From the NCBI GenBank assembly GCA_023420435.1, contig JAEZWE010000084.1, forward strand, positions 1-38,022: DNA of 38,022 bases. Direction: 5' to 3'. Made by a program: the position numbers and the translations under genes. Of this stretch, positions 8,691 through 35,746 are shown piece by piece (positions within the stretch are counted from its first letter, which is position 1; every line of letters begins with the position of its first letter). Below the pieces are notes generated by a model. It did not search any database, was not told where the DNA came from, and worked only from the letters and a program-made list of their open reading frames with translations. The stretch comes from Bacteroidota bacterium (lineage in GTDB: Bacteria; Bacteroidota; Bacteroidia; Flavobacteriales; Weeksellaceae).

Positions 8691-10190
8691 ATGCTAAAAT
8701 TCCTTAAGAAAAAAGCCGCTTTGCTTTGGGCAAAAAAACATGTAAAAGATACTGAAAATTTTAAAAAAAACTCAGTTGCATTGCAGGAAAAACTACTTCT
8801 TGATTTAGTAAAATCTGCAGAAAAAACACTTTTCGGTTTGCATCATGGTTTTTCAGAAATAAAATCGGTAAAAGATTTTCAGGAAAAAGTGAAAATTTCA
8901 GATTACGAAGATTTAAAACCCTACATTGAAAAAATAAAACATGGGGACCGAAATATTCTTTGGGAAGGAAATCCGGAATATTTTGCAAAGACTTCGGGAA
9001 CAACCAGCGGCACAAAGTACATCCCCATTTCAAAAGAAGGAATGCCTTTTCAAATTGCAGGAGCACAATCTGCTTTATTTCATTACATCGCTCAAAAAGG
9101 AAATGCCGATTTTGTAAACGGAAAAATGATTTTTTTGCAGGGAAGTCCGGAATTGGAAGAAGTAAATGGTGTGAAAACAGGTCGTCTTTCCGGAATTGTT
9201 GCTCATCATATCCCAAATTATCTTCAAAAAAACAGACTTCCAAGCTTGGAAACCAACATGATGGAAGATTGGGAAGCCAAAGTGGATGAAATTGTAAAAG
9301 AAACCGAAAAAGAAAACATGACTTTAATTTCCGGAATTCCACCGTGGTTAATCATGTATTTCGAGAAATTAATCGCCAGAAATGGCAAAAAAATAAAAGA
9401 ACTTTTCCCAAATCTTCAACTTATTGTAACAGGTGGTGTAAACTACGAACCGTATCGCGAAAAAATGAAAGAACTTCTAGGTGGAAAAGTAGATATCGTC
9501 CAAACATTTCCGGCAAGTGAAGGGTTTTTTGCATTTCAAGATGATTTTAACAAAGAAGGCTTGCTTTTGCAAACCAATCATGGAATTTTTTATGAATTCG
9601 TTCCACTAGAATTGTACGGAAAACCTGAAGCTCCAAGATTAACGCTAAAAGAAGTCGAACTTCACAAAGATTATGCTTTAATTTTAACCACCAATTCAGG
9701 ACTTTGGGCTTATTCTATTGGAGATGTAGTTAGATTTATTTCCAAAAATCCTTACAGAATTTTGGTTTCCGGAAGAACCAAGCATTACACTTCTGCTTTT
9801 GGAGAACATGTTATTGCTTTTGAAGTGGAAGAAGCGATGAAAGAAACGGTTGAAAATTTTCCTGCACAAATTACAGAATTTCATTTAGCTCCCAATGTAA
9901 ATCCTGAAGAAGGATTGCCTTTCCACGAATGGTTTATTGAATTTGAAAAAGAACCGGAAAATTTGGAGGAATTCAGAAAAAAACTGGACGAGGAAATGCG
10001 AAAAAGAAACAGTTATTATGATGATTTAATTACTGGTAACATTTTGCGACCGCTGATCATTTCAAAACTTCAAAAAAATGCGTTTCAGGAATTTGCAAAA
10101 TCTGAGGGAAAATTGGGTGGTCAAAATAAAATTCCAAGATTGGCTAATGACAGAAAAATTGCAGATTTTTTGGAAAAACTTAAAATATAA
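8691..10190 (+). CDS. GH3-family (acyl-adenylate-forming amido synthetase-like) protein
   Basis: 499 aa. Motif AKTSGTTSGTKYIPIS and the overall layout are typical of bacterial 'GH3 auxin-responsive promoter' family proteins. Confidence 0.85.
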   Translation: MLKFLKKKAALLWAKKHVKDTENFKKNSVALQEKLLLDLVKSAEKTLFGLHHGFSEIKSVKDFQEKVKISDYEDLKPYIEKIKHGDRNILWEGNPEYFAKTSGTTSGTKYIPISKEGMPFQIAGAQSALFHYIAQKGNADFVNGKMIFLQGSPELEEVNGVKTGRLSGIVAHHIPNYLQKNRLPSLETNMMEDWEAKVDEIVKETEKENMTLISGIPPWLIMYFEKLIARNGKKIKELFPNLQLIVTGGVNYEPYREKMKELLGGKVDIVQTFPASEGFFAFQDDFNKEGLLLQTNHGIFYEFVPLELYGKPEAPRLTLKEVELHKDYALILTTNSGLWAYSIGDVVRFISKNPYRILVSGRTKHYTSAFGEHVIAFEVEEAMKETVENFPAQITEFHLAPNVNPEEGLPFHEWFIEFEKEPENLEEFRKKLDEEMRKRNSYYDDLITGNILRPLIISKLQKNAFQEFAKSEGKLGGQNKIPRLANDRKIADFLEKLKI

Positions 10191-23728: not shown

Positions 23729-24163
23729 ATGGATTACAGTTTAATGCTTAACGCACACCGTGGATTTGCTTACTTAATTTTATTAGCTTCCGCATTATTC
23801 ATTATTGCATTATTGGCTACAATGTTTGGTTATTCAGGAAAAATTTCAAAATTTTTGAGAAAATCAACACTTTTTACAATGATTCTCTTTCATACCCAAG
23901 CTTTGATTGGTTTAATTATGTTATTTTTCTTTTCTCCAGGCTTTAAAGCTGCCAAAGAAGCAGGAACTTTGATGAGTGATTCAGTTTCAAGAAACACTTA
24001 TGTTGAACATCCAACTGCCATGATTATTGCAGCAGTTTTAATGACGATTTTGAATAAAAAATTCAAAACCAACGATAAATTGCAAATGACTTGGGTAATA
24101 ATGGGAGTTATTGCACTTGCATTAATGCTTTGGGCTTTCCAGTGGAACAGACTTTTTGCATAA
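23729..24163 (+). CDS. integral membrane protein of unknown function (4 TM)
   Basis: 144 aa with four hydrophobic segments. No recognisable motif. Confidence 0.6.
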   Translation: MDYSLMLNAHRGFAYLILLASALFIIALLATMFGYSGKISKFLRKSTLFTMILFHTQALIGLIMLFFFSPGFKAAKEAGTLMSDSVSRNTYVEHPTAMIIAAVLMTILNKKFKTNDKLQMTWVIMGVIALALMLWAFQWNRLFA

Positions 24164-24184
24164 TTTTTTTAATTTTTCTTTTAA

Positions 24185-25177
24185 ATGAAAGTAGCAGTTG
24201 TTGGTGCAACCGGAATGGTGGGACAAGTGATGTTAAAAGTTTTGGAAGAAAGAAATTTTCCAATTTCAGAACTAATTCCTGTAGCATCAGAAAGATCCGT
24301 AGGAAATAAGATCTCTTACAAAGGAAATGATTTTGAAATTGTTTCGATGCAATCTGCAGTAGAAATGAAACCCGAAATTGCCATTTTTTCTGCAGGAGGT
24401 GGAACATCTTTAGATTGGGCGCCAAAATTCGCAGCAGTTGGAACAACCGTTATTGACAATTCTTCCGCTTGGAGAATGGATCCTACAAAAAAATTAGTAG
24501 TTCCGGAAATCAATGCCAATGTTTTAACAATAGATGATAAAATTATCGCAAATCCCAATTGTTCCACGATACAATTGGTGATGATTCTGCATCCTCTAAA
24601 CAAAAAATATGATGTCAAAAGAGTGGTGATTTCTACTTATCAATCGGTAACAGGAACCGGAAAAGCCGCTGTAGATCAATTGAATGGCGAAATTTCCGGC
24701 GATGATTCTGTTGCAAAAGTTTATCCTTACGAAATTTTTAAAAATGCTTTGCCACAGTGCGACGTTTTTGACGAAGGAGATTACACCAAAGAGGAACTGA
24801 AACTGATGCGAGAACCGAAAAAAATTATGGGTGATGATTCCTTGAATTTAACAGCAACTGCTGTTAGAGTTCCGGTTCAAGGTGGACATTCCGAATCGGT
24901 GAATATCGAATTTGAAAACGATTTCGAGATTGAAGAAATTAAAAAAATTCTTTCAGAAACATCTGGAGTAAAAGTTTTGGACGATGTTGCCAATAAAATT
25001 TATCCTATGCCTTTATATTCTGAAGGAAAAGACGAGGTTTTTGTGGGAAGAATCCGAAGAGATCCTTCACAACCGAAAACTTTAAACCTTTGGATTGTGG
25101 CAGACAATCTCCGAAAAGGAGCCGCAACCAATGCGGTTCAAATCGCAGAATATCTGGTTGAAAACAAATTAGTATAA
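24185..25177 (+). CDS. asd: aspartate-semialdehyde dehydrogenase
   Basis: MKVAVVGATGMVGQ Rossmann motif, active-site NPNCSTIQ, SGTGK, VPVQGGHS, DNLRKGAA. 330 aa. Confidence 0.95.
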   Translation: MKVAVVGATGMVGQVMLKVLEERNFPISELIPVASERSVGNKISYKGNDFEIVSMQSAVEMKPEIAIFSAGGGTSLDWAPKFAAVGTTVIDNSSAWRMDPTKKLVVPEINANVLTIDDKIIANPNCSTIQLVMILHPLNKKYDVKRVVISTYQSVTGTGKAAVDQLNGEISGDDSVAKVYPYEIFKNALPQCDVFDEGDYTKEELKLMREPKKIMGDDSLNLTATAVRVPVQGGHSESVNIEFENDFEIEEIKKILSETSGVKVLDDVANKIYPMPLYSEGKDEVFVGRIRRDPSQPKTLNLWIVADNLRKGAATNAVQIAEYLVENKLV

Positions 25178-25205
25178 AAAAAATCCCGCTTCATGCGGGA
25201 TTTTT
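25178..25205 (+). terminator. rho-independent terminator
   Basis: aaaaaatcccgc / ttcat / gcgggattttt. Confidence 0.8.
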
Positions 25206-25237
25206 ATTAGAACCATCAAACTTTGAAAATTTCATTC

Positions 25238-26248
25238 ATGGAAGTTCAAAAAAACACCGAAAGAAACAAATTCAAATTCCAAAGAAATGTTGCCATTGTT
25301 GGAATCATCCTTTTCATTGCAAAAATTTTGGCTTGGAACATCACCAATTCTGATGCGGTTTTTTCTGATGCCATGGAAAGCATTGTCAATATTATTGCCG
25401 CTTTTTTAGGACTTTATTCTCTTTATTTGGCTGCAAAACCAAAGGATTTGGATCATCCTTATGGACATGGAAAAGCCGAATTTATAACTTCCGGTGTTGA
25501 AGGAGCATTGATCATTTTTGCAGGAATTATGATCATTATTGAAGCTTCAGATTCGCTTCTTCACGGAAATCAGTTAAAAGAACTTGATTACGGTATTTTG
25601 ATTGTGGCTATAACTGCTATTATTAATTTTTATCTTGGTTTCATATCCGTAAAAAAAGGAAAAAAAGAAAACTCTGCGGTTCTAATTTCTTCAGGAAAAC
25701 ATTTACAAAGTGATACCATTACCACAGCAGGCGTTGTTTTGAGTTTGATTTTGGTTTATTTCACTAAAATTTATTGGATCGATTCCTTTGTAGCCTTAGG
25801 TTTTGGCGGTTATATTATGTTTGTCGGTTACAAAATAATACGCAGTTCTTTAAGCGGAATTATGGACGAAGCCGATTTAGAAATGCTTTCCCGACTTGCA
25901 AAATTTCTAAATGAAAACCGAAAACCGGAATGGATTGATCTTCACAATACAAGAATTCAGCAGCATGGAAGCCGACTTCACATCGATGCACATCTCACTT
26001 TGCCTTGGTATTTTGAACTTCGAGAAGCCCATGAGCAAATGGAAGAAATGATAAAACTTATTGCAAAAAATACAGACAGAAAAGTGGAGTTCAACTTTCA
26101 TATGGACGATTGTAAACCTTTTTCTTGCGAAATTTGTCAAATTTCAGATTGTAAAGTGCGACAAAACTTATTTGTAAAAAAAATCAACTGGAACGTGAAA
26201 AACATTGCCCAAATTGACAAACATAATGTATCAACAAAAGATAATTAA
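25238..26248 (+). CDS. cation diffusion facilitator (CDF) metal efflux transporter
   Basis: Start at ATG 25238. TM region with SDAMESIVN...DHPYGHGKAEF. Cytoplasmic domain, then an extra Cys-rich tail. Confidence 0.9.
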   Translation: MEVQKNTERNKFKFQRNVAIVGIILFIAKILAWNITNSDAVFSDAMESIVNIIAAFLGLYSLYLAAKPKDLDHPYGHGKAEFITSGVEGALIIFAGIMIIIEASDSLLHGNQLKELDYGILIVAITAIINFYLGFISVKKGKKENSAVLISSGKHLQSDTITTAGVVLSLILVYFTKIYWIDSFVALGFGGYIMFVGYKIIRSSLSGIMDEADLEMLSRLAKFLNENRKPEWIDLHNTRIQQHGSRLHIDAHLTLPWYFELREAHEQMEEMIKLIAKNTDRKVEFNFHMDDCKPFSCEICQISDCKVRQNLFVKKINWNVKNIAQIDKHNVSTKDN

Positions 26249-26682
26249 ATCTTTTCATATTGCTTTGCCATAGCTCTTCTATAGTAAAACAGTGGAATAA
26301 TCAGCAATAAAATCAAAGGTTGAATGACAAATCTTCTGATATAAAATGAAAAAAGATAACCAATTTCAAATTGGGTAGAAACGCAATAAAAATAAATGGG
26401 AAAAGTAATTAGGAATACAATTCCAATTAAAACGACAGCTTGTACTGTCCATTTCTTATTTAAAAATAGCGCTTGAACAATAACTGCTGAGAAAAAAAGA
26501 TTCAGAAAAAATCTAAAAAAATGGCTTAAAATCAATTTTCCCCATTCAAAATCCGGAAAAACAGCTCCTTTACTTGCCTGATGAAAAAAATCAATAAAAG
26601 GATCATAAAAAGCTTGCTCTTCAACGACTCTTACACCAATTAATCCGCAGATTCCGAAAAGAAACAAAAACCATCTAAGCAT
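26245..26682 (-). CDS. exosortase F system-associated membrane protein (putative)
   Basis: 145 aa multi-TM protein. Its start overlaps the xrtF-like stop by 8 nt (ATGCTTAG). FYDPF motif near the N-terminus. Family assignment comes from context and memory. Confidence 0.6.
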   Translation of the reverse strand: MLRWFLFLFGICGLIGVRVVEEQAFYDPFIDFFHQASKGAVFPDFEWGKLILSHFFRFFLNLFFSAVIVQALFLNKKWTVQAVVLIGIVFLITFPIYFYCVSTQFEIGYLFSFYIRRFVIQPLILLLIIPLFYYRRAMAKQYEKI

Positions 26683-27208
26683 TTTTACTTTTCTTTAAAG
26701 CAAAATAATTAATCCAAACCAACCACAAAACGACGACGCTTCCATAAATTATTGCCGGGAAAATATAATCGTGAAACATTTTTCCTTCCGGTGGATAAAA
26801 GTAAAGCACCCAATTTAATCCAGCAATGCGTAAAACATTCATTATGTGAAGTAAAACCAGTCCAGCAATAGCAAATACAAAAGTTTTTAAACCTTTATAA
26901 AAAGCAAAAATAAAAGCCAGAAAAAGAATCATCACCGAAATTGCGTTGCAACCTTCCACCATTCTGGAAACATATTTGTCAATAACGATGAACCTTGCAG
27001 CTTGTTGATTTTCCAAAATTTCAATTTTAGAAGAAATTCCAAAAAAATTTTGAACTGCAGTTACTTGTTCCCCAACAAAAACCGAAAAAGGATCCAGAGA
27101 AATTCTTCCAGTTCTATCCAAATAAACCTGATACAGAAAAACCATCACAAGATAAATGATGACAAACCTCAAAAGTATTTTCAGAATAGGTTTAAAGTCG
27201 TTGAACAT
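26675..27208 (-). CDS. xrtF: exosortase family protein XrtF (putative)
   Basis: Start set at ATG 27208 (MFNDFKPILKILLRFVIIYLV...). Polytopic membrane protein with the exosortase-type residues MVEGCNAIS (Cys), NVLRIAGL (Arg) and MFHDYIFP (His). Confidence 0.75.
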   Translation of the reverse strand: MFNDFKPILKILLRFVIIYLVMVFLYQVYLDRTGRISLDPFSVFVGEQVTAVQNFFGISSKIEILENQQAARFIVIDKYVSRMVEGCNAISVMILFLAFIFAFYKGLKTFVFAIAGLVLLHIMNVLRIAGLNWVLYFYPPEGKMFHDYIFPAIIYGSVVVLWLVWINYFALKKSKNA

Positions 27209-27212
27209 AGCG

Positions 27213-27220
27213 CAAATATA
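27213..27220 (-). promoter_or_regulatory. -7 box TATATTTG, 4 nt before the xrtF ATG
   Basis: Minus strand reads tatatttg-cgct-ATG(27208). Confidence 0.5.
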
Positions 27221-27240
27221 GTAATTAACACTTAAATTGC

Positions 27241-27248
27241 TATATTTG
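27241..27248 (+). promoter_or_regulatory. -7 box TATATTTG for the amgK-like operon
   Basis: 16 nt upstream of TTG 27265. It forms a mirror image of the box at 27213-27220. Confidence 0.5.
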
Positions 27249-27264
27249 TAAAACACTCTTACCA

Positions 27265-28278
27265 TTGGAAAAAGCACAATTTTTTTTTGAAAATTATATA
27301 CAGGAAAAAGCAGAATCTTTTACTGCTTTACCTCAAAGTGGATCTGCAAGAATTAATTATATAGCAGAAACCTCCAAAGGAAAATTTGTAATCACCCAAA
27401 ATGAAAACATTCGGGAAAATGAAGCATTTTTTTATTTCTCTGAAGTTTTTTCTTCCTTAAATCTTAATACTCCAAAAATTTTTAAAATTTCTGAAGATCG
27501 TAAAACCTATATTCAGGAACATTTGGGTGAAAAAACTTTTTCAGAAATTATCGCTGAAGAAGGATTAAACAGCCGAACTGAAAATCTGGTAAAACAAACA
27601 TTAGATCAGCTTTATAACCTTCAAAAAGAAACCGAAGGTAAAATAGATTATTCCAAAACCTTTGAATATGAAAGTTATGATGAACTACCTATTTTAAACG
27701 ATCTTTTTTATTTTAAAAAAATGTTTGTCGACATTTTGGAAATTGAGTATCACAAATCTTCATTGCTTCAGGAATTCAAAAAAATTGTTGAAAAAATTGA
27801 AAATCTAGAACCTAAAGGTTTAATGATTCGGGATTTTCAATCCAGAAATATTCTTGTGAACAGAGAGGATAAGGTATTTTTCATCGATTATCAGAGCGCG
27901 ATGAAAGGACCTTTAATGTATGATGTCATTTCATTTTTACATCAGGCTAAAGCCAATTTTCCAAAATTTTTCAAAGATGAAATGACGCAGTATTATCTTT
28001 CAAAACATTCTGAAGAAAACCAAATTCAACTAAAAAACTCGGTGGAAATTCTTCAGCTTATTCGTTATCTTCAAGTTCTTGGAGCGTATGGTTTTAGGGG
28101 GTTAATTCAGCGTAAACCACATTTTATTTCCAGCATTCAGCAAGGCATGGAAAATCTCATTGAATTTTCAAAAAATTGGGACGAAATGCAAAAATATTCT
28201 GAGCTTCAGAAAATAATCAACGTTCTAGGAAAGGAGGAAACCAAAATAAAAATTCAACAAATTTTAAATACAAAATAA
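27265..28278 (+). CDS. APH-fold sugar kinase, AmgK-like (anomeric MurNAc/GlcNAc kinase candidate)
   Basis: 337 aa. LPQSGSARINYIA, IRDFQSRNILV (Brenner-type catalytic loop) and IDYQSAMKGPLMYDVISFL correspond to the AmgK-family HRDxHSRNL / DFQDA..GP..YDL.SLL motifs. TTG start is forced: the next in-frame ATG is about 150 codons in. Confidence 0.7.
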   Translation: MEKAQFFFENYIQEKAESFTALPQSGSARINYIAETSKGKFVITQNENIRENEAFFYFSEVFSSLNLNTPKIFKISEDRKTYIQEHLGEKTFSEIIAEEGLNSRTENLVKQTLDQLYNLQKETEGKIDYSKTFEYESYDELPILNDLFYFKKMFVDILEIEYHKSSLLQEFKKIVEKIENLEPKGLMIRDFQSRNILVNREDKVFFIDYQSAMKGPLMYDVISFLHQAKANFPKFFKDEMTQYYLSKHSEENQIQLKNSVEILQLIRYLQVLGAYGFRGLIQRKPHFISSIQQGMENLIEFSKNWDEMQKYSELQKIINVLGKEETKIKIQQILNTK

Positions 28279-28287
28279 ATTTTCGAA

Positions 28288-28689
28288 ATGTTATACATTG
28301 AAATTCATAGTTTCTCGTACAAAAAGGGAGGTATTCCAAAAGATAATTCCGGAAACGGAGGTGGGTTTGCTTTCGATTGTCGCGGAATTTTAAACCCGGG
28401 AAGAATTGATGAGTATAAAGCACAAACCGGAAAAGATCAACCTGTACAAGAATTTTTGGAAAACAATACGGAAATGCCGAGATTTCTTGATCTTATAAAA
28501 AATTTGGTTTCTATTACGATCGATGATTATTTAGCCCGCAATTTCGAAAATCTACAAATCAATTTCGGTTGTACCGGCGGACAACATCGCTCTGTTTATT
28601 CTGCCGAAAAAATAGCAGAATTTATCCGCGAAAAATATCCTCAAACAAAAGTGACGGTAAACCATGACGAACAGCCCCAACTAAATTAA
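28288..28689 (+). CDS. stand-alone RapZ C-terminal-domain protein (no P-loop N-domain)
   Basis: 133 aa. HSFSYKKGGIP, FDCRGILNPGR, TGKDQPVQEFLENNTEMPRFL and NFGCTGGQHRSVYSAEKIAEFI match the C-terminal half of RapZ/YhbJ as I recall it (GCTGGKHRSV core). Confidence 0.75.
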   Translation: MLYIEIHSFSYKKGGIPKDNSGNGGGFAFDCRGILNPGRIDEYKAQTGKDQPVQEFLENNTEMPRFLDLIKNLVSITIDDYLARNFENLQINFGCTGGQHRSVYSAEKIAEFIREKYPQTKVTVNHDEQPQLN

Positions 28690-28703
28690 AAATTTTCAAA
28701 AAA

Positions 28704-29417
28704 ATGAAGGCTCTTATTTTTGCAGCAGGAAAAGGAACCCGCTTAAAACCTTTTACCGATCATCATCCAAAAGCTTTGGCTCCGGTAAATGGAATTCCGC
28801 TGCTTCAAAGAAATATTGAATATTTAAAATCTTACGGAATTTCTGATTTTGTGATCAACATCCATCATTTTGGAGATCAAATTGTAGATTTCCTGAAGAA
28901 AAATGAAAATTTCGGATGCAAAATCGAGATTTCTGATGAAAAAAAAGAACTCTTGGAAACGGGTGGTGGTTTGGTTTTTGCAAAAAAATTTTTAGAAAAA
29001 GAAGATGATTTCCTCATTATGAATGCCGATATTTTAACCGACTTGAACATTCATGATTTTGTAGAATTTCATAAAACCAAAGAAGATATCGTCACTTTAG
29101 CTGTTTCTGACCGTAAAAGTTCAAGAAAACTTCTTTTTAATGAAGAAATGATTCTAAGAGGATGGCTGAATGTAGAAACTGGAGAACAAAGATTAGCGGA
29201 ATTTAATAAAGGTTTTAATGCTTTAGCTTTTAGCGGAATACACTGTATTAATTCTTCCATATTCAAAAAAATTAAAAGAACAGGCAAGTTTTCCATTATG
29301 GAAGAGTATTTAGATTTAATGCATTCCGAAAAAATTCACGGTTATAAACACCAAGCCCATTTAATAGATGTGGGCAAACCGGAATCTGTAAAGAAAGCTG
29401 AAGAATATTTTAAATAA
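28704..29417 (+). CDS. sugar-1-phosphate nucleotidylyltransferase, MurU-like
   Basis: MKALIFAAGKGTRLKPFTDHHPKALAPVNG (G-x-G-T-R-x signature), ETGGG, NADILTD. 237 aa. Resembles MurNAc-alpha-1-P uridylyltransferase. Confidence 0.75.
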   Translation: MKALIFAAGKGTRLKPFTDHHPKALAPVNGIPLLQRNIEYLKSYGISDFVINIHHFGDQIVDFLKKNENFGCKIEISDEKKELLETGGGLVFAKKFLEKEDDFLIMNADILTDLNIHDFVEFHKTKEDIVTLAVSDRKSSRKLLFNEEMILRGWLNVETGEQRLAEFNKGFNALAFSGIHCINSSIFKKIKRTGKFSIMEEYLDLMHSEKIHGYKHQAHLIDVGKPESVKKAEEYFK

Positions 29418-29425
29418 AAAAAACA

Positions 29426-30184
29426 ATGAGTAAAATAAAACGTGGAAAAGGCCTCACCAAAGTAATTGCTGGAAACGAATTTGAAATTGACCAAAAAATT
29501 CAAAGTCATTTTGCTGAAAAAACCTGGGACGAAACGATTACCAAAGACAGCTGGATGGTTTTCAAAATTATGGCGGAACTGGTGGATGGTTACGAAAAAA
29601 TGGCGAAAATTGGTCCTTGTGTTTCGATTTTTGGATCTGCAAGACTGAAAGAAGATGATAAATATTACAAAATGGCTGTAGAAATTGCGGAAAAAATTAC
29701 AGAAATTGGTTTCGGAATTATCACCGGTGGTGGTCCCGGAATTATGGAAGCCGGAAACAGAGGCGCAAGAAATGCCGGTGGAAAATCAATCGGTTTGAAT
29801 ATTGAACTGCCTTTTGAGCAACATTTTAATCCGTATATCGACAAGAATTTTTCTCTGGATTTTAATTACTTTTTTGTAAGGAAAGTAATGTTTGTAAAAT
29901 ATTCGCAAGGTTTTATTGTAATGCCTGGTGGTTTTGGAACTTTAGATGAACTTTCTGAAGCGATCACTTTAATACAAACCCAAAAAATTGCCCGATTTCC
30001 TATTGTTTTGGTAGGTTCAGAATTTTGGTCTGGATTAATTGATTGGTTTAAAAATACGTTATTAAAGAATGGAATGATCTCCGAAGAAGATTTGAATCTT
30101 TACCGTATCGTAGATACCGCAGATGAAGCTGCAGCGCATATTAAGGCGTTTTATGATAAATACTCCATCAACGTCAATTTCTAG
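29426..30184 (+). CDS. LOG-family (TIGR00730) nucleotide 5'-monophosphate phosphoribohydrolase
   Basis: GGGPGIMEAGNRGA and PGGFGTLDEL signature motifs. 252 aa. Confidence 0.9.
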   Translation: MSKIKRGKGLTKVIAGNEFEIDQKIQSHFAEKTWDETITKDSWMVFKIMAELVDGYEKMAKIGPCVSIFGSARLKEDDKYYKMAVEIAEKITEIGFGIITGGGPGIMEAGNRGARNAGGKSIGLNIELPFEQHFNPYIDKNFSLDFNYFFVRKVMFVKYSQGFIVMPGGFGTLDELSEAITLIQTQKIARFPIVLVGSEFWSGLIDWFKNTLLKNGMISEEDLNLYRIVDTADEAAAHIKAFYDKYSINVNF

Positions 30185-30214
30185 CTTGGCATATAATTTG
30201 AGATTACTAATTCG

Positions 30215-30222
30215 TATATTTG
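30215..30222 (+). promoter_or_regulatory. -7 box TATATTTG
   Basis: 21 nt upstream of ATG 30244. Confidence 0.45.
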
Positions 30223-30243
30223 ATTTAATATATTATAAACAAG

Positions 30244-30714
30244 ATGAAAAATTTTTTAAAAATATTCGGGATTTTAACAGTTTTTGTGATGATGAGCTTT
30301 GTTGGAGCGGATTTTTATTCGTCGATGACTAAAGTAGATTATATAGAAGGAAGTAAAACTCTTAAATTCACCACCAAAATGAACACAGATCATATTTCTG
30401 ATGCCATAAAAATTAATCCCAACACTGCAGCTTTTGAAGCTGAAGTAAAGAAATATGTTAATAATAATTTTGATGTTTACATTAACGGAAGCTCAAAAAC
30501 GCTAACATTTACAGGAAGCCAAGTAAAAGGAGAAACGGTTTGGGTTTATTTTGAAGCTAATGGGATTTCAGATATAAATTCTATAAAAATTAAAAACACT
30601 ATTCTTTTAAGCGCTTTTCCAAAACAATTTAATTTGGTAAATATCGCCTACAAAGGACAACAAAAAACAATGAATTTCCAAAGAGGAAAAGAAGTGAATG
30701 AAGTGAGTTTTTAA
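30244..30714 (+). CDS. small secreted hypothetical protein (DUF6702-like?)
   Basis: Signal peptide MKNFLKIFGILTVFVMMSFVGA. 156 aa. Family assignment is tentative and from memory. Confidence 0.5.
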   Translation: MKNFLKIFGILTVFVMMSFVGADFYSSMTKVDYIEGSKTLKFTTKMNTDHISDAIKINPNTAAFEAEVKKYVNNNFDVYINGSSKTLTFTGSQVKGETVWVYFEANGISDINSIKIKNTILLSAFPKQFNLVNIAYKGQQKTMNFQRGKEVNEVSF

Positions 30715-30730
30715 TTTCATTTAAAAATTT

Positions 30731-30763
30731 AAAAAAAAGCAACAGAAATTCTGTTGCTTTTTT
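30731..30763 (+). terminator. rho-independent terminator
   Basis: aaaaaaaagcaacag / aaatt / ctgttgctttttt. Confidence 0.75.
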
Positions 30764-30776
30764 AGTAACCAATAAA

Positions 30777-30805
30777 GAAAGACCGTCATTACTGACGGTC
30801 TTTTC
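30777..30805 (-). terminator. rho-independent terminator for the minus-strand TBDT-lipoprotein operon
   Basis: aaagaccgtca / ttac / tgacggtcttt; on the minus strand it is followed by tttctttatt. Confidence 0.65.
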
Positions 30806-30825
30806 ATTTTATCATTAAAGCAATA

Positions 30826-32940
30826 TTAATTACTTCCTTTTACTTTTACATTATCAATTTCCCATGTTGTAGCCGCTGATGAAGTAGAAGTATATTTGAA
30901 CGCAATTCTGATGGATTTATTTACAAAAGCATTCAAACTTAAATTTCCGGAATTTGTCCATGAATTGAACGCATTAAGATTGGTATCCAACGTTGGTGTT
31001 AACTGTACCCAAGTTGTTGTAGCTGCAGAACCTGTATAGTTTTCTGTAACATACACTTCTAAAGCATTACCGTTATATCTTCCATCAGAATCAAAACTCA
31101 TACTTGCTGAAGAAAGTCCATTCAAATTAATCGGTTTTGAAACCAACCAGTCTTCATTCACATTATTTCCTCCTTGATATCCGTTCATTACCGCACATGG
31201 GGCAGGATTTCCAAAATTTTGAATATTCCAAACTTGTGTTCCTGTAACATTTTCTGCAGTCCAATTATCGGTTAAACTTCCTGAGAAAGTTTCTGTAAAA
31301 ATAGTTGCCGGAGGAATCGTTCCATCACATCTTGCATTATCGAAATCGGCATGAATTTGTTTAGGAATCCAAAGTTGATATGTTCCGTTGAAAATACTCA
31401 AAATTGCATAAACATCACCTTTTCCACCATCAACTTCACTTCCGGCAAATGTGGCAAAATTGCTTGTTCTAAGGATAATGGTATTTCCGTTACAGTCTTT
31501 TAAAGTTCTGTTGGTTGCGGCAGTTCCTGCGTATGGTTTTCCTAAATCTGCATCAATAAATTCAACATTTTTGATTTTGATCCATCTTCCTACATCTCCT
31601 GCCGTAAGTTGAGTAATGGTTCTTTCGGTAGGAACAACTGCTGTTGCCGGCATATTGCTATCGAAGAAATGTTTGTAAACATCACCTTCCACAACTTGTC
31701 CGATATTTCCATTAAAAGGTTGTCCCAATTGAGTTTCTCCGCCTGAATTTCCTACAGAAAGACCTTTAAGTTTGATATAAACTTCTTTTCCTACTTTAAA
31801 TCTGCTGTCAAGATATAAGTTAAGTTTATTAACATTCACACGAATACCGCCTGTAGCATCTTCCACATAAACATATTTGTAAAGATTTCCGGTTTCATCA
31901 TTGGCTGTTACTTTGGCTTTCAAAAGGAAATCTCCTTGAATAAGATTTGTAGTAGTACCAGGTGTAAACGAAGAAGGATTATAAAGGGCTTTTACGTCTG
32001 CAACGGTTTTCACGGTAAGTGAAGTTGGATCTAAAGTACAAGGATTTGTAGTAAGACCATCCAATCTTGGGAAAGTATTCATATCAAGATCTGAAAGTCT
32101 GTTGATATACATTTGGTAAGTACTATTGAATTTACTGAAAATTCCCACAAATTTTCCATTTCCAGAAGGTAAAATTTGGTTAGCAAAAGAAGCAAAACCA
32201 CTGTTTCTTACCACCGCAGTTCTTGTATAATTTCCTGTTGTAGTATTGTAACCTTCTGCCCCAATTTGTCTGTCCACCGAAGTTCCATCCGGAGCATATG
32301 TATTACAAAGCGCAAGTTTGGTAAATTCAACATTATCAACCTGGATTAAAGCTCCCAAAAGATTTTGATTGGCCGCAAATTCTGAAATCTTCAAAACTTT
32401 AGGTACCATTTGTACTTTTTCGGAACATGATCTAATAATATGTTTTGAAACCATATTTTCAGGAATACGAGAAACCGCATCTGCTCCAGTTGCAGCTCCA
32501 TCTTTAATACCTAATTGCACTAAACCACCATAAGTTCCAATAGCAAGATCATTTAATTTGATATAAATTTTCTTTCCTTGAGGAAAGGTTGTATAAGTAC
32601 TAACTGCATCAATACTGATGGTAAAACCATGTGTTGGATTTGTTGGACTGTCCTGAATATAAATGGTTTTATAAATATTTCCTGTTTCATCAGAAGAGGA
32701 AACATAACCTTCTAAAATTTTCTCAGAAGTGGGATCATTAGGATCAACAGATGGGAAAATATAAGTGGTGGAACCATGTAAAGCCTTTACTTGTGCAATG
32801 GTCATATTGGCTGTAAGATCCTGGCACTCATAATTTGCCAAATTGGGTTCTTCGTACTTGTCATCATGAACGCAACCTACTACCAATAATGCAGCAAAAA
32901 AAGCGTATAATAAATTAATAAATGAATTGTATTTTTTCAT
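30826..32940 (-). CDS. large surface lipoprotein with an internally duplicated module and a C-terminal beta-sandwich domain (DUF5689-like x2 + choice-of-anchor-J-like)
   Basis: 704 aa. Lipobox LLVVGC (Cys23) followed by VHDD. Two homologous modules (aa 39-287 and 301-534). C-terminal domain FTETFSG..NWT..WLVSKPINL...WEIDNVKV. Domain names are from memory. Confidence 0.7.
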   Translation of the reverse strand: MKKYNSFINLLYAFFAALLVVGCVHDDKYEEPNLANYECQDLTANMTIAQVKALHGSTTYIFPSVDPNDPTSEKILEGYVSSSDETGNIYKTIYIQDSPTNPTHGFTISIDAVSTYTTFPQGKKIYIKLNDLAIGTYGGLVQLGIKDGAATGADAVSRIPENMVSKHIIRSCSEKVQMVPKVLKISEFAANQNLLGALIQVDNVEFTKLALCNTYAPDGTSVDRQIGAEGYNTTTGNYTRTAVVRNSGFASFANQILPSGNGKFVGIFSKFNSTYQMYINRLSDLDMNTFPRLDGLTTNPCTLDPTSLTVKTVADVKALYNPSSFTPGTTTNLIQGDFLLKAKVTANDETGNLYKYVYVEDATGGIRVNVNKLNLYLDSRFKVGKEVYIKLKGLSVGNSGGETQLGQPFNGNIGQVVEGDVYKHFFDSNMPATAVVPTERTITQLTAGDVGRWIKIKNVEFIDADLGKPYAGTAATNRTLKDCNGNTIILRTSNFATFAGSEVDGGKGDVYAILSIFNGTYQLWIPKQIHADFDNARCDGTIPPATIFTETFSGSLTDNWTAENVTGTQVWNIQNFGNPAPCAVMNGYQGGNNVNEDWLVSKPINLNGLSSASMSFDSDGRYNGNALEVYVTENYTGSAATTTWVQLTPTLDTNLNAFNSWTNSGNLSLNAFVNKSIRIAFKYTSTSSAATTWEIDNVKVKGSN
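31339..32826 (-). repeat. protein-level tandem duplication (two modules of about 240 aa) within the lipoprotein gene
   Basis: Matched strings: TIAQVKALH/TVADVKALY; ILEGYVSSSDETGNIYKTIYIQD/LLKAKVTANDETGNLYKYVYVED; GKKIYIKLNDLAIGTYGGLVQLG/GKEVYIKLKGLSVGNSGGETQLG; IQVDNVEF/IKIKNVEF; VVRNSGFASFA...FVGIFSKFNSTYQMYI/ILRTSNFATFA...VYAILSIFNGTYQLWI. Confidence 0.8.
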
Positions 32941-32959
32941 TTTTTGAAATTTTTTCTAA

Positions 32960-35746
32960 TTAAAATCTTAAATAAACATTAGCGAAGAAAGTTCTACCTC
33001 TATCATACCAAAGTTTTGGTCCGAAATAAGGGTATTTTCTGTTAGCATCCATAATAGCTTCAGGGAAGTTGGCATTTCTACCTTGTTCAAAACCACCGGT
33101 AACATAATCTCTGTTATTCAGGATATTGTTTACACTAAAGCTAATTCCTGCTCTGTATTTTCCGAAAAGGAAAGATTTTCCGACATTGGCATTCAACATA
33201 AACTGGTCTTCAAATTTTTGTTGAGCGGTTAATCTTTCAATATCTTCAGCGGTTACTCCAGGATAATTATCTCCTGTTGTTGGATCTGTATATAACGCTG
33301 CTGTTTTATTAAGCGCAGAAAAGTCCAAATATTGATCTTGAAGATAATTAGCAGAAGCACCAATCCACCAATATTTTGGAGAATTGTATCTTAAACCTGC
33401 AGAATACGCTTTTTGAGGAGTTCCTGCAATTTTATATCCTTTAATGTTGGCTTTACCCCATTCATTAGAACTACGATAACCGAAATCGTCATCAAAAGTG
33501 CTTACATTTGGGGTATTGGTAATTTTATAATCACCAATACTTGCTACTGCATTTGCGGTAAGAGTTGGTGTAATTTTTACTTCTGTTCCTAATTCTATCC
33601 CTTTATATTCTTTATCTACACCGCTTAAAATTTCTGCAATTAAAGCATTTCCGCCACTGTCTGTTCCGGAAGTTATATCAGCATAATATCTGCTAACTTC
33701 TGTTGCATTATTAATGGTGGTATAATAAGCTCCCAATCTGATTTTCAAAATCTGACCTCTCAAAATATAACTTAAATCGTTAGAATTGATGATCTGGTTC
33801 TGAACACTTGGCGTAATCATATTGGTTACTCTTGGGCTGATGAAAATTTCATTCAAAGTTGGCGCAAGACTGAAAAACGCTCCGTTGTATACGATAAAGT
33901 TTTTACCGTTGATTTTATAGGTAATTCTTCCTTTCAACCCAGCATCAAAAGCGTCAAAAAGTTCACTTTTACCTTTAGAATTATAAATTGCATGGTTGAA
34001 TTTTCCTTCTCTTTGAGATTCTGAATAAGAAGAAAAAACAGACGCCATGAAATTCCATTTTGGAAGATCAACTTCCGAAGAAACATTCATTGAATACATA
34101 TTTCTTAGTAAGTCGTAAGAATATTGTGTTCTGTCTCCAACTTGCAGTTTTCTGTTAGGATTGTCGATATCATTAGGTGCATCATAATTAAATGCATTAA
34201 GATCATTGGCATAATCCGCTCCTAAAAGATCTACGATTTCACGGAAATTATCCGATTTCAAATTTTGAAAATTGAAATTCAAGTTCAACTTCCAGTTACT
34301 TGCTAATTTGGTATCGAAATGAGAAGCAAAATTTAAAGTTTTATCTTTATTAACGTCTGCAACTACAGTATAACGAGCACCTATTTCTTTATTTTGATAG
34401 TTGGCGTCGTAAAGTGACATCCAATTGATTTGACTGGTATTAGGATCAGTTCTCCATTGGTTTACATAAGCGTCGTACTGAGCTTGTTCAGCATCAGTAA
34501 TAGTTGCTCCTCCATCAGATGTGGTATCCAAAAAGTCATTATATAAATAACCTGGCATTTTTCTGTAATAGGTTGGTTTTGGATCTGCGGCATGAAACCA
34601 ATCCAATCTGCTTCTACTGTCTTTTCCAACTTGGTAAGATAAAGTATTGGTCCAGTTAGAGGTTTTTCCTAATTTCAAATAATCGGTGATCATGAAAATC
34701 GGTTCAAAAACTTTTCTAATTCTTGAATTCCTTTTTTCACCATCTTGCCAACCCCAATATTCGTTGTAGTTTTTACCCATTAAATCAAAAGTTTCCTGAG
34801 TATTTGGAGAATTACCTGCTCTGTAAGTTGGGGCTCCAAAAGCAGTAAGGTTTATGGCATGTCTGTCGCTAAATTGCTTTTCAATAGCACCAAAATAAGC
34901 GTAAGAATCTTGATAAGTACCATCAATTACACCATCATCGGCCCATCTTCTGCTTCCAGAAAATGTGAAAGCCCAACCATTTTTCGTTAAACCGGAAGAA
35001 TACGTTGCCATTGCTCTATGGAAATAACTTCTGTTTGTAAAAGAATATGCAAGAGAAGTCTGTTTTCTGTAGCTGGAAGCTCTTGTGTTATAATAAACTA
35101 CACCTCCCAAATTTCCAAAAGTGTATTCTGAAGGAGTAATATTATCGACATTTTCATAAGGATATCTGGTAACATCATTCAAACCTCCCCAGTTACTAAA
35201 ATCGACCTTTCCGTCATCGTTTTTAGACATAGGAACTCCATTAAAAAGAATATCTTCAAATCTGTTTTCTACCCCTCTTGGACGGAACCAATAAGCCCCA
35301 AGCTCAAAAGCAGAAACATTTTGAAAAACATCTCTTCCAGAACTTAATAAACCTACTGTAGGCTGCATTGCAGATCCTCCTTCGTCAATATCTCCTGCAG
35401 AATCGTCAATCACAATAACGCCGGCATCAGAAATGGCCACACCCAACTGAATAATTCCTAAGTCCTTTCTTTTTTCACCTTCCAAAACATCAAATTCCAC
35501 CGTTTTAGATTCGAAATTTGGCTTTGCAATAGTAATTTGATAATGTCCTGGCATTAAATCGACAAATTGAAAATATCCAATTTTGTCCGCAGTAACATCC
35601 TTAACCGATTGTGCTAAATCTACTTCAGCACTTTCAACCGGTTTCCCTTGTAAATCTTGAACATACGCATACACTGTTGTCTGAGCATAATAAAACGATG
35701 CTGGCAACAAAGTAAATAACGAGATGAGAGATAGTTTTCTTATCAT
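32960..35746 (-). CDS. TonB-dependent transporter with N-terminal carboxypeptidase-regulatory-like domain
   Basis: 928 aa. Signal peptide; CarboxypepD_reg-like YAYVQDLQGKPVESAEVDL...GYFQFVDLMPGHYQITIAKPNF; plug (NWGGLNDV); long barrel; terminal ...NVYLRF. The lipoprotein gene follows after 19 nt. Confidence 0.9.
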   Translation of the reverse strand: MIRKLSLISLFTLLPASFYYAQTTVYAYVQDLQGKPVESAEVDLAQSVKDVTADKIGYFQFVDLMPGHYQITIAKPNFESKTVEFDVLEGEKRKDLGIIQLGVAISDAGVIVIDDSAGDIDEGGSAMQPTVGLLSSGRDVFQNVSAFELGAYWFRPRGVENRFEDILFNGVPMSKNDDGKVDFSNWGGLNDVTRYPYENVDNITPSEYTFGNLGGVVYYNTRASSYRKQTSLAYSFTNRSYFHRAMATYSSGLTKNGWAFTFSGSRRWADDGVIDGTYQDSYAYFGAIEKQFSDRHAINLTAFGAPTYRAGNSPNTQETFDLMGKNYNEYWGWQDGEKRNSRIRKVFEPIFMITDYLKLGKTSNWTNTLSYQVGKDSRSRLDWFHAADPKPTYYRKMPGYLYNDFLDTTSDGGATITDAEQAQYDAYVNQWRTDPNTSQINWMSLYDANYQNKEIGARYTVVADVNKDKTLNFASHFDTKLASNWKLNLNFNFQNLKSDNFREIVDLLGADYANDLNAFNYDAPNDIDNPNRKLQVGDRTQYSYDLLRNMYSMNVSSEVDLPKWNFMASVFSSYSESQREGKFNHAIYNSKGKSELFDAFDAGLKGRITYKINGKNFIVYNGAFFSLAPTLNEIFISPRVTNMITPSVQNQIINSNDLSYILRGQILKIRLGAYYTTINNATEVSRYYADITSGTDSGGNALIAEILSGVDKEYKGIELGTEVKITPTLTANAVASIGDYKITNTPNVSTFDDDFGYRSSNEWGKANIKGYKIAGTPQKAYSAGLRYNSPKYWWIGASANYLQDQYLDFSALNKTAALYTDPTTGDNYPGVTAEDIERLTAQQKFEDQFMLNANVGKSFLFGKYRAGISFSVNNILNNRDYVTGGFEQGRNANFPEAIMDANRKYPYFGPKLWYDRGRTFFANVYLRF

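Follow-up and report, generated by a model that had tools for sequence, protein, structure and literature searches.

A cluster of four plus-strand open reading frames (ORFs) occupies positions 27265-30184 of the stretch of DNA analysed here (the window, 38,022 nt), which covers positions 1-38,022 of contig JAEZWE010000084.1 from a Bacteroidota bacterium of the Weeksellaceae (GCA_023420435.1). By their Pfam and NCBIfam matches the genes encode, in this order, an APH-fold kinase, a RapZ_C protein, a MurU-like nucleotidyltransferase (NTP) and a LOG protein. The first three are proposed to be a split form of an amino-sugar salvage module which has three parts and occurs throughout Bacteroidota and Ignavibacteriota, and in which the RapZ_C part has been separated from the kinase in the Weeksellaceae and would act as its ligand-binding subunit. 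Taken as a whole, this proposal is favoured with modest confidence. Its architectural and evolutionary part can be held with high confidence; the specific role given to RapZ_C is tentative and falls just short of being favoured. The observations that carry the proposal are the architecture of the proteins, their phylogenetic spread, the order of their domains, the fission, the relative conservation of the three parts and the retention of the RapZ phosphate-binding loop. What appears to be new is that a module of the AmgK/MurU-like kind has a RapZ-type domain as an obligatory part; the window shows the rare form with split genes. An earlier note on this DNA had reported four same-strand genes with gaps of 9, 14 and 8 nt; the coordinates and spacers agree exactly with those found here, and its domain calls hold as well (PF01636, PF22740, PF00483 with MurU as the best NCBIfam family, and TIGR00730/PF03641).

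Distribution and fission of the kinase-RapZ_C gene

An exhaustive search with the 133-aa RapZ_C protein of the window mostly returns proteins of ~470-490 aa, in which the aligned part lies at residues ~345-475. Among 150 diverse representatives at 50% identity, classified with Pfam, ~111 (about three quarters) are kinase-RapZ_C fusions and ~8 are stand-alone RapZ_C proteins. Three others carry all parts in one polypeptide as kinase-RapZ_C-NTP_transferase (714-768 aa) and a further three are RapZ_C-NTP_transferase proteins (372-387 aa), and none of the full-length proteins among the 150 has the reversed domain order. A profile of the fusions finds at least 8000 candidates, counted as clusters at 90% identity and each scoring E <= 1e-10, and the named members among the matches listed include Chitinophagaceae, Cytophagaceae, Ferruginibacter and Ignavibacteriaceae.

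The gene neighbourhoods were surveyed at 160 loci, 80 from genomes (among the matches listed) and 80 from metagenomes. All 80 genome loci are of the fused type and represent six or more orders together with a second phylum, with fusions in Chitinophagales, Sphingobacteriales, Saprospirales, Cytophagales, Bacteroidales and Ignavibacteriales/Melioribacteraceae as well as in a metagenome-assembled genome of Delongbacteria. Within the Bacteroidales the fusion is seen in Bacteroides, Phocaeicola, Alloprevotella, Prevotellaceae, Muribaculaceae, Paludibacteraceae and Prolixibacteraceae, and every Bacteroidales locus in the sample is fused. The metagenome loci comprise 67 fused and ~8 split cases. A comparison of this kind had been proposed in the earlier note, and its outcome is divided: RapZ_C goes with the kinase, the two being fused at 147 of the 160 loci, but LOG is found at only four.

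Public databases name members of the clade 'RNase adapter RapZ', 'UPF0042 nucleotide-binding protein', 'ATP-binding protein' or 'aminoglycoside phosphotransferase'; AmgK is not among the names in use. To call these proteins RapZ or ATP-binding is an over-annotation, because they lack the P-loop domain. In one representative (P0298, 718 aa) APH and RapZ_C are preceded on the N-terminal side by a 3'-5' exonuclease domain (DNA_pol_A_exo1), and at locus L006 (8481-11342) the module adjoins polA; the joined protein may be an ORF mis-called across neighbouring genes or a real fusion.

When the kinase and the RapZ_C protein of the window are joined head to tail, they run colinear with the fusions, and the point between the two genes lies exactly within the interdomain linker. 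The two ORFs also share a reading frame ((28288-27265) mod 3 = 0), with only a TAA codon and 9 nt between them. Taken together, the colinear alignment, the shared frame and the position of the boundary indicate that the Weeksellaceae arrangement is the result of gene fission, and the RapZ_C gene is best read as the kinase's own C-terminal domain which was split off at the linker in this family. The view that an AmgK/MurU pair is split by a RapZ_C gene, as it was first put, is thus not upheld, since RapZ_C is normally the C-terminal domain in this kinase clade and has been freed by fission in the Weeksellaceae.

At least one further lineage (loci L088, L089, L140 and L150) has undergone a split independently. 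The closest homologs of the window are found in Chryseobacterium, Kaistella, Cruoricaptor and Bergeyella, all members of the Weeksellaceae, and near-identical DNA is present in water, wastewater and soil metagenomes. The spacing of kinase and RapZ_C genes is not tight in Chryseobacterium, where it amounts to 155 nt, and in Kaistella antarctica (L002, 5545-5954; L003, 36-445) two ORFs of 49 aa and 72 aa (PDDEXK_3) lie between them. The split genes of Kaistella can be separated by ~500 nt, and the RapZ_C-NTP-LOG genes may have a promoter of their own there. At a metagenomic locus (L117, 1-5009) a Weeksellaceae-type block of RapZ_C, NTP, LOG and DUF6702 genes is preceded by 5 kb that contain no homolog of the kinase; either a larger insertion has moved the kinase gene away or this organism has lost it.

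The RapZ_C pocket and its putative function

RapZ of Escherichia coli (YhbJ) and YvcJ of Bacillus subtilis consist of a P-loop kinase-like N-terminal domain (NTD) followed by a C-terminal domain (CTD), and the protein serves as a sensor of glucosamine-6-phosphate (GlcN6P) and as an RNase E adaptor. The isolated CTD of E. coli RapZ binds GlcN6P with a KD of about 10 nM (PMC7073468), and its pocket also takes sulfate or malonate and probably a phosphate group (PMC5737377). This pocket is widely conserved, in contrast to the RNA-binding region which is confined to the Enterobacteriaceae (PMC7073468).

The 133-aa protein of the window matches PF22740 with 110 bits (gathering score 27) over profile positions 2-119 of 121, and the sequence of the E. 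coli RapZ-CTD structure 5O5S at E = 8e-15. The AF2 model of the isolated domain (pLDDT 83) is matched in Foldseek by 5O5S, 5O5O, 5O5Q and 8B0I at TM 0.70-0.78 and probability 1.00, and by nothing else that is significant. The likeness to RapZ thus includes the CTD fold, the location of the domain C-terminal to a kinase-type domain and a link to amino-sugar metabolism. Residues G246-S254 of E. coli RapZ are kept as GCTGGQHRS (GCTGGxHRS in both), a loop that includes the pocket residues T248, G249, H252 and R253 as well as the adjacent C247. The counterparts in the window, C95, T96, G97, H100 and R101, are conserved, and the loop is invariant in all family alignments; D182, R184 and K170 are kept as D30, R32 and K12. 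RapZ_C is also the most conserved of the three parts of the module, with 52-61% identity to relatives across classes and phyla, whereas the kinase reaches 35-40% and the transferase 45-57%.

A Gly-rich loop, SGNGGG, is an insertion with respect to E. coli RapZ, and its GGG is invariant in alignments A1, A3 and A4. The pLDDT of this loop is below 50 in the model of the isolated domain and ~80 or above in that of a fused relative (pLDDT 91 overall). The higher order in the fused model is a weak hint that the loop packs against the kinase. Solved structures that combine an APH fold with RapZ_C were looked for and none was found.

The same pocket residues touch the backbone of GlmZ in E. coli (PMC9841335), and two of the residues kept in the window, K12 and R32, correspond to K170 and R184. 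RapZ_C might on these grounds be an RNA-binding adaptor like E. coli RapZ, which would control an mRNA or a small RNA (sRNA) such as one governing glmS, yet this is extremely unlikely. The basic RNA-binding tail of E. coli RapZ consists of K270, K281, R282 and K283 (PMC5737377), whereas the C-terminal tail of the window protein, ...EKYPQTKVTVNHDEQPQLN (...NHDEQPQLN), has no basic cluster, and the RNA-binding region is, as noted above, reported to be restricted to Enterobacteriaceae. There is also no P-loop NTD that could support tetramer formation or contact RNase E, given that the full-length RapZ model NF003828 is matched at positions 160-277 only, with 92.4 bits against 244. Furthermore, the partners to which RapZ_C is covalently joined are metabolic enzymes and not sRNAs, and a scan of the window with Rfam gave no matches. 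A tRNA scan of the window was likewise empty.

Another explanation would be that RapZ_C is a structural domain for oligomerisation or scaffolding which dimerises the kinase or tethers the transferase and binds no ligand. The CTD of E. coli RapZ is a dimer, D182, which is required for its self-association, is kept as D30, and RapZ_C lies between kinase and transferase in every fusion. Such a role is nevertheless quite unlikely, as the strictest invariance is found at the phosphate pocket (GCTGGQHRS, GGG and NPGR) and not in a surface patch, pure scaffolds rarely evolve more slowly than the enzymes they join, and the transferase gene is not even adjacent in ~30% of loci.

RapZ_C could instead be catalytic, for instance a Cys-dependent phosphatase or phosphomutase acting on N-acetylmuramic acid (MurNAc) 6-phosphate (MurNAc-6-P) that replaces the HAD phosphatase MupP of Pseudomonas, in which case the three parts would take MurNAc-6-P to UDP-MurNAc. 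All alignments show an unchanged Cys95 in the CX5R(S) loop, the domain is the slowest-evolving of the three parts, and the described Pseudomonas route requires a MurNAc-6-P phosphatase. The C247A and C247S variants of E. coli RapZ lose function, for which the authors suggest a catalytic thiol and a 'specialised catalytic function', and they report that the density in the pocket looks like a 'chemically transformed product' derived from GlcN6P (PMC9841335). Set against this, no RapZ_C is known to have enzymatic activity, importers of free MurNAc such as Tannerella (PMC7670621) need no 6-phosphatase, and the Foldseek search with the RapZ_C model returned no phosphatase, EIIB or ArsC-like fold but only RapZ and, after it, insignificant matches to 6-phosphofructokinase (PFK). 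A catalytic RapZ_C is therefore distinctly unlikely. The PTP, LMW-PTP or EIIB-like fold which the CX5R(S) pattern had suggested was rejected on the same search, and the catalytic reading is retained at low probability because of the C247 results from E. coli.

The RapZ-CTD has a distant fold likeness to that subdomain of PFK which binds fructose-6-phosphate and acts jointly with an ATP-binding domain (PMC5737377), and RapZ has been proposed to derive from repurposed parts of metabolic enzymes (PMC9841335). PFK follows the same logic as is proposed here, namely a sugar-phosphate-binding module paired with a kinase, but this is an analogy and not a matter of membership, the matches of the window RapZ_C model to PFK being insignificant (E > 2). 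A wider possibility, which is speculative and fairly unlikely, is that RapZ_C was ancestrally an enzymatic or substrate-presenting domain of amino-sugar-phosphate metabolism, that it kept this job in the kinase clade of the Bacteroidota, and that the RNA-adaptor role in enterobacteria is a later repurposing. The ancestral activity might have been a Cys-dependent conversion or dephosphorylation of MurNAc-6-P, or the capture of MurNAc 1-phosphate for the uridylyltransferase. If true, this would explain both the dependence of E. coli RapZ on C247 and the 'chemically transformed' appearance of its ligand density.

Kinase, transferase and the putative salvaged sugar

The original description of the AmgK-MurU bypass is reportedly that of Gisin et al. 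2013. This route of peptidoglycan recycling is known from Pseudomonas putida and Pseudomonas aeruginosa and also from Caulobacter, Legionella and Tannerella (PMC13041923, PMC13046382, PMC8054146), and the Tannerella orthologs of AmgK and MurU turn MurNAc into UDP-MurNAc in E. coli (PMC10941766). The window resembles the bypass in that a gene for an APH-fold kinase precedes one for an NTP_transferase of ~230 aa, and in that AmgK and MurU are the top named families. The kinase matches PF01636 (APH) with 34.6 bits, and its best NCBIfam family is AmgK (54.6 bits with NF045759 and 33.7 with NF045698, where the cut-offs are 550 and 500). Its catalytic motifs are intact and conserved in the alignments, with RDFQSRN as the xRDxxxxN loop and IDYQ (IDxQ) providing the metal-binding Asp, and the best PDB match is 3CSV, an alphaproteobacterial APH protein. 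Fused relatives score 51-64 bits with the AmgK models and the clade as a whole 50-64 bits, while the cut-offs are 500-550.

The transferase belongs to PF00483 (NTP_transferase) and carries the N-terminal GxGTRLxPxTxxxPK motif in the form AAGKGTRLKPFTDHHPK. MurU is its best NCBIfam family (NF045761, 150.4 bits, short of the cut-off of 250) and still ranks first when the weaker match to NF045697 is considered (95.8 bits, cut-off 370); across the clade the transferases reach 95-150 bits with the MurU models against 250. The best PDB matches are the MurU structures 4Y7T (E = 4.6e-26) and 8HHD (E = 1.1e-23). The earlier identification of the two genes as AmgK and MurU stands as far as the nearest named families and solved structures are concerned, but both proteins remain below the equivalog cut-offs, and scores this far under them suggest that the kinase belongs to an AmgK-like clade separate from AmgK proper. 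A further difference from the bypass is the RapZ_C domain or partner itself, which is missing from the proteobacterial-type kinases of ~330-340 aa (333 aa in 3CSV).

The conversion of a free sugar via its 1-phosphate into a nucleotide sugar by one polypeptide or a tight operon is familiar from Fkp of Bacteroides, a fused L-fucokinase and GDP-fucose pyrophosphorylase, with which the triple fusions of this clade may be compared. The kinase of Fkp has a GHMP fold, in contrast to the APH fold here, and the protein has no middle domain of the RapZ_C type.

A transferase ortholog lies directly 3' of the kinase-RapZ_C gene and on the same strand in 49 of 77 genome loci and 52 of 71 metagenome loci for which this can be decided (~68%). 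The conserved unit is the kinase with RapZ_C, the transferase being optional. At a few loci of the fused type (L100, 5410-5916; L111, 879-1589; L113, 3-149; L129, 1770-2522) a MurU-like gene is found nearby on the opposite strand, which suggests that the linkage of kinase and transferase can survive local inversion.

In the proposed mechanism the kinase would make a sugar-1-phosphate, most likely the alpha-1-phosphate of MurNAc or of N-acetylglucosamine (GlcNAc), and the transferase would turn this product into a UDP-sugar. RapZ_C would bind a phosphorylated amino sugar in the pocket formed by CTGGQHRS, GGG and NPGR and would serve as the ligand-binding subunit of the kinase, either sensing a pathway metabolite in order to gate salvage or holding the sugar-1-phosphate for the transferase.

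Several points weigh against this mechanism. The pocket differs from that of E. coli RapZ: G38, next to an invariant R39, stands in the place of H190, Q99 stands in that of K251, and there is the extra Gly-rich loop; it is best described as retained but remodelled. The pTM of 0.77 for the fused model is no proof of a fixed interface between the domains. The hand-over of a sugar-1-phosphate to the transferase is weakened in particular by the ~30% of loci which have a kinase-RapZ_C gene but no adjoining transferase gene. The function of the Tannerella orthologs together with the fused type of all sampled Bacteroidales makes it likely that the characterised Tannerella AmgK belongs to this clade. 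Among the papers searched, none was found that names RapZ together with AmgK, nor RapZ together with Bacteroidetes and phosphotransferase. One locus from a human oral metagenome (L139) was considered as a Tannerella sequence and ruled out by its GC content of about 34%.

The low scores also mean that the substrate could differ. The module would then not be specific for MurNAc and would salvage only GlcNAc or N-acetylgalactosamine (GalNAc), or another hexose, for the nucleotide sugars of surface glycans, the likeness to AmgK and MurU being one of family only. The whole clade lies far under the cut-offs, as described, and no peptidoglycan-recycling gene is recurrent beside the module or present elsewhere in the 38-kb window. 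This alternative is unlikely, since AmgK and MurU clearly outrank all other kinase and nucleotidyltransferase families, the closest solved structures of the transferase are those of MurU, functional orthologs exist in Tannerella, a member of the Bacteroidales, the sampled representatives of which carry this clade, and the link to RapZ_C points to amino-sugar phosphates.

Transcription unit, neighbouring genes and wider significance

The features of the cluster and its surroundings are collected in Table 1.

Table 1. Positions of the genes, motifs and signals of the module and its flanks in the window
Feature	Position	Strand	Basis or remark
Bacteroidetes-type -7 box (TATATTTG)	27241..27248	+	16 nt 5' of kinase TTG start; fits TAnnTTTG
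AmgK-like APH-fold kinase, 337 aa, TTG start	27265..28278	+	PF01636; colinear with kinase domain of ~480-aa fusions
Fission junction: in-frame TAA and 9-nt spacer	28276..28287	+	frame and alignment
Stand-alone RapZ_C protein, 133 aa, putative sugar-phosphate-binding kinase subunit	28288..28689	+	PF22740
Clade-specific Gly-rich loop SGNGGG, residues 21-26	28348..28365	+	alignments
Phosphate-binding loop GCTGGQHRS, residues 94-102	28567..28593	+	alignment to E. coli RapZ G246-S254
MurU-like sugar-1-phosphate nucleotidyltransferase, 237 aa	28704..29417	+	PF00483, NF045761
LOG/TIGR00730-family protein, 252 aa	29426..30184	+	TIGR00730; lineage-specific neighbour, outside conserved module
DUF6702 gene, next same-strand gene	30244..30714	+	family match; own TATATTTG box 30215-30222
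Bidirectional intrinsic-terminator hairpin, 12-bp stem	30777..30804	.	RNA fold -17.1 kcal/mol, z = -6.3

The LOG protein scores 149.1 bits with TIGR00730 (cut-off 96.35) and has the motifs PGGFGTLDE and GGGPGIME, like other members of this family, which includes cytokinin riboside 5'-monophosphate phosphoribohydrolases and PpnN-like nucleosidases. It differs from the named enzymes in that it falls below both equivalog cut-offs (54.4 against 300 for the cytokinin LOG model NF058542, and 36 against 450 for PpnN) and in having an N-terminal extension of ~65 aa. The earlier note had placed all four genes, LOG included, in one amino-sugar salvage pathway. The gap between NTP and LOG genes is indeed very short, with 8 nt in the window, 5 nt in Chryseobacterium and 4 nt in Kaistella, and no terminator separates the genes. 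However, the window is syntenic with Chryseobacterium indoltheticum and Kaistella antarctica in the order asd, CDF, xrtF-associated gene, xrtF, kinase, RapZ_C, NTP, LOG and DUF6702, and as this whole region from asd to DUF6702 is syntenic within the Weeksellaceae, adjacency within the family says little about function. Outside it the linkage is lost: neither a LOG nor a DUF6702 homolog occurs within 5 kb at any of the 80 genome loci, the four metagenome loci with LOG all show the Weeksellaceae-type RapZ_C-NTP-LOG-DUF6702 block, and LOG was not found at the independent split-gene loci L088, L089, L140 and L150. There also appears to be no chemistry that links a nucleotide phosphoribohydrolase to the formation of UDP-MurNAc. 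A pathway of all four genes is thus very unlikely, and LOG was rejected as a member on grounds of conservation; LOG and DUF6702 are probably co-transcribed passengers in this family. Of the additional components of salvage that had been suggested, RapZ_C is tied to kinase and transferase by fusions and LOG is not linked beyond the Weeksellaceae block.

No further recurrent neighbour such as a transporter, NagZ, AnmK or MurQ emerged when 942 neighbouring ORFs from 164 loci were clustered, no family being present at more than 18 of the 164 (11%). The top clusters (M1 peptidase, IcmF-like mutase, response regulator and lipid A acyltransferase) reflect synteny within lineages and are unrelated housekeeping genes.

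The cluster has the layout of an operon, with one strand, short spacers, a promoter upstream and no internal terminator. The -7 box upstream of the kinase gene, pointed out before, fits TAnnTTTG as described, but the window has no excess of this motif (58 copies, with 59.7 expected from shuffles), and the match alone therefore proves nothing. Chryseobacterium (L001) and Kaistella (L002) have a TAnnTTTG box at the equivalent position 5' of their kinase genes, so that it is position and conservation which support a real promoter. No clean -33 TTTG element is seen by eye at the expected spacing upstream. The earlier statement that internal terminators are absent agrees with our results, as the only plus-strand candidate within the cluster is a 5-bp stem at 28576-28591 inside coding sequence. 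No terminator was found between the end of LOG (30184) and the start of DUF6702 (30244), and, reading downstream from the kinase promoter, no strong terminator precedes the hairpin beyond DUF6702, which would imply that the transcription unit may comprise five genes including DUF6702, with its 3' end more likely at 30804. Two runs labelled 'METAGENOMIC RNA-Seq' (X10 and X11) cover positions 24000-33000 with a flat depth of ~6.8 on both strands and in intergenic regions, as does a DNA control; they behave as DNA libraries and are hence uninformative on co-transcription. The two runs have identical contig sets and are apparently duplicates of one another.

Divergent from the kinase gene (26245-27277, minus strand) are xrtF (TIGR04128, 192 bits) and the gene of an exosortase F system-associated membrane protein (TIGR04127). 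By its mechanical start (GTG, 27277) the xrtF ORF would run into the kinase gene, yet it matches its family only from residue 24 onwards, and the true start is therefore probably the ATG at 27208. With this start the intergenic region measures 56 nt and holds two back-to-back TATATTTG boxes, one on the minus strand (27213-27220) and the plus-strand box of the kinase gene. The minus-strand box ends 4 nt from the xrtF ATG, which would imply that the mRNA is nearly leaderless or that the true start is further downstream. Two genes on the minus strand (30826-35746) converge with the operon and share its terminator hairpin; they encode a 704-aa DUF5689 protein whose C-terminus is DUF5017-like and, upstream of it, a 928-aa CarboxypepD_reg outer-membrane protein, a pair that resembles a surface system of the SusC/SusD style. 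Elsewhere in the window (8691-10190, plus strand) lies a gene for a bacterial GH3-family protein (PF03321, PF23571 and PF23572) homologous to plant auxin-amido synthetases; its presence in the same 38 kb as LOG, the family of which includes cytokinin-activating enzymes, is probably a coincidence.

RapZ has been studied almost only in enterobacteria as an sRNA adaptor and GlcN6P sensor, and the role of the CTD pocket and of its Cys elsewhere is open (PMC7073468, PMC9841335). The fusion of RapZ_C to an amino-sugar kinase, and in some cases to the enzyme of the following step, in thousands of protein clusters of Bacteroidota and Ignavibacteriota would offer a natural and assayable setting for the primary function of the domain, and these fusions support the proposal that RapZ was built from parts of metabolic enzymes. 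The database names 'RNase adapter RapZ' and 'aminoglycoside phosphotransferase' are misleading for this clade. The split form of the Weeksellaceae is a ready-made system where RapZ_C, being a protein of its own, can be supplied or omitted. For the Bacteroidota, the AmgK/MurU-type route appears to have a third component which is missing from the two-enzyme model, and this component bears on fosfomycin tolerance, on the MurNAc auxotrophy of oral members of the phylum and on labelling with MurNAc probes by means of the Tannerella enzymes.

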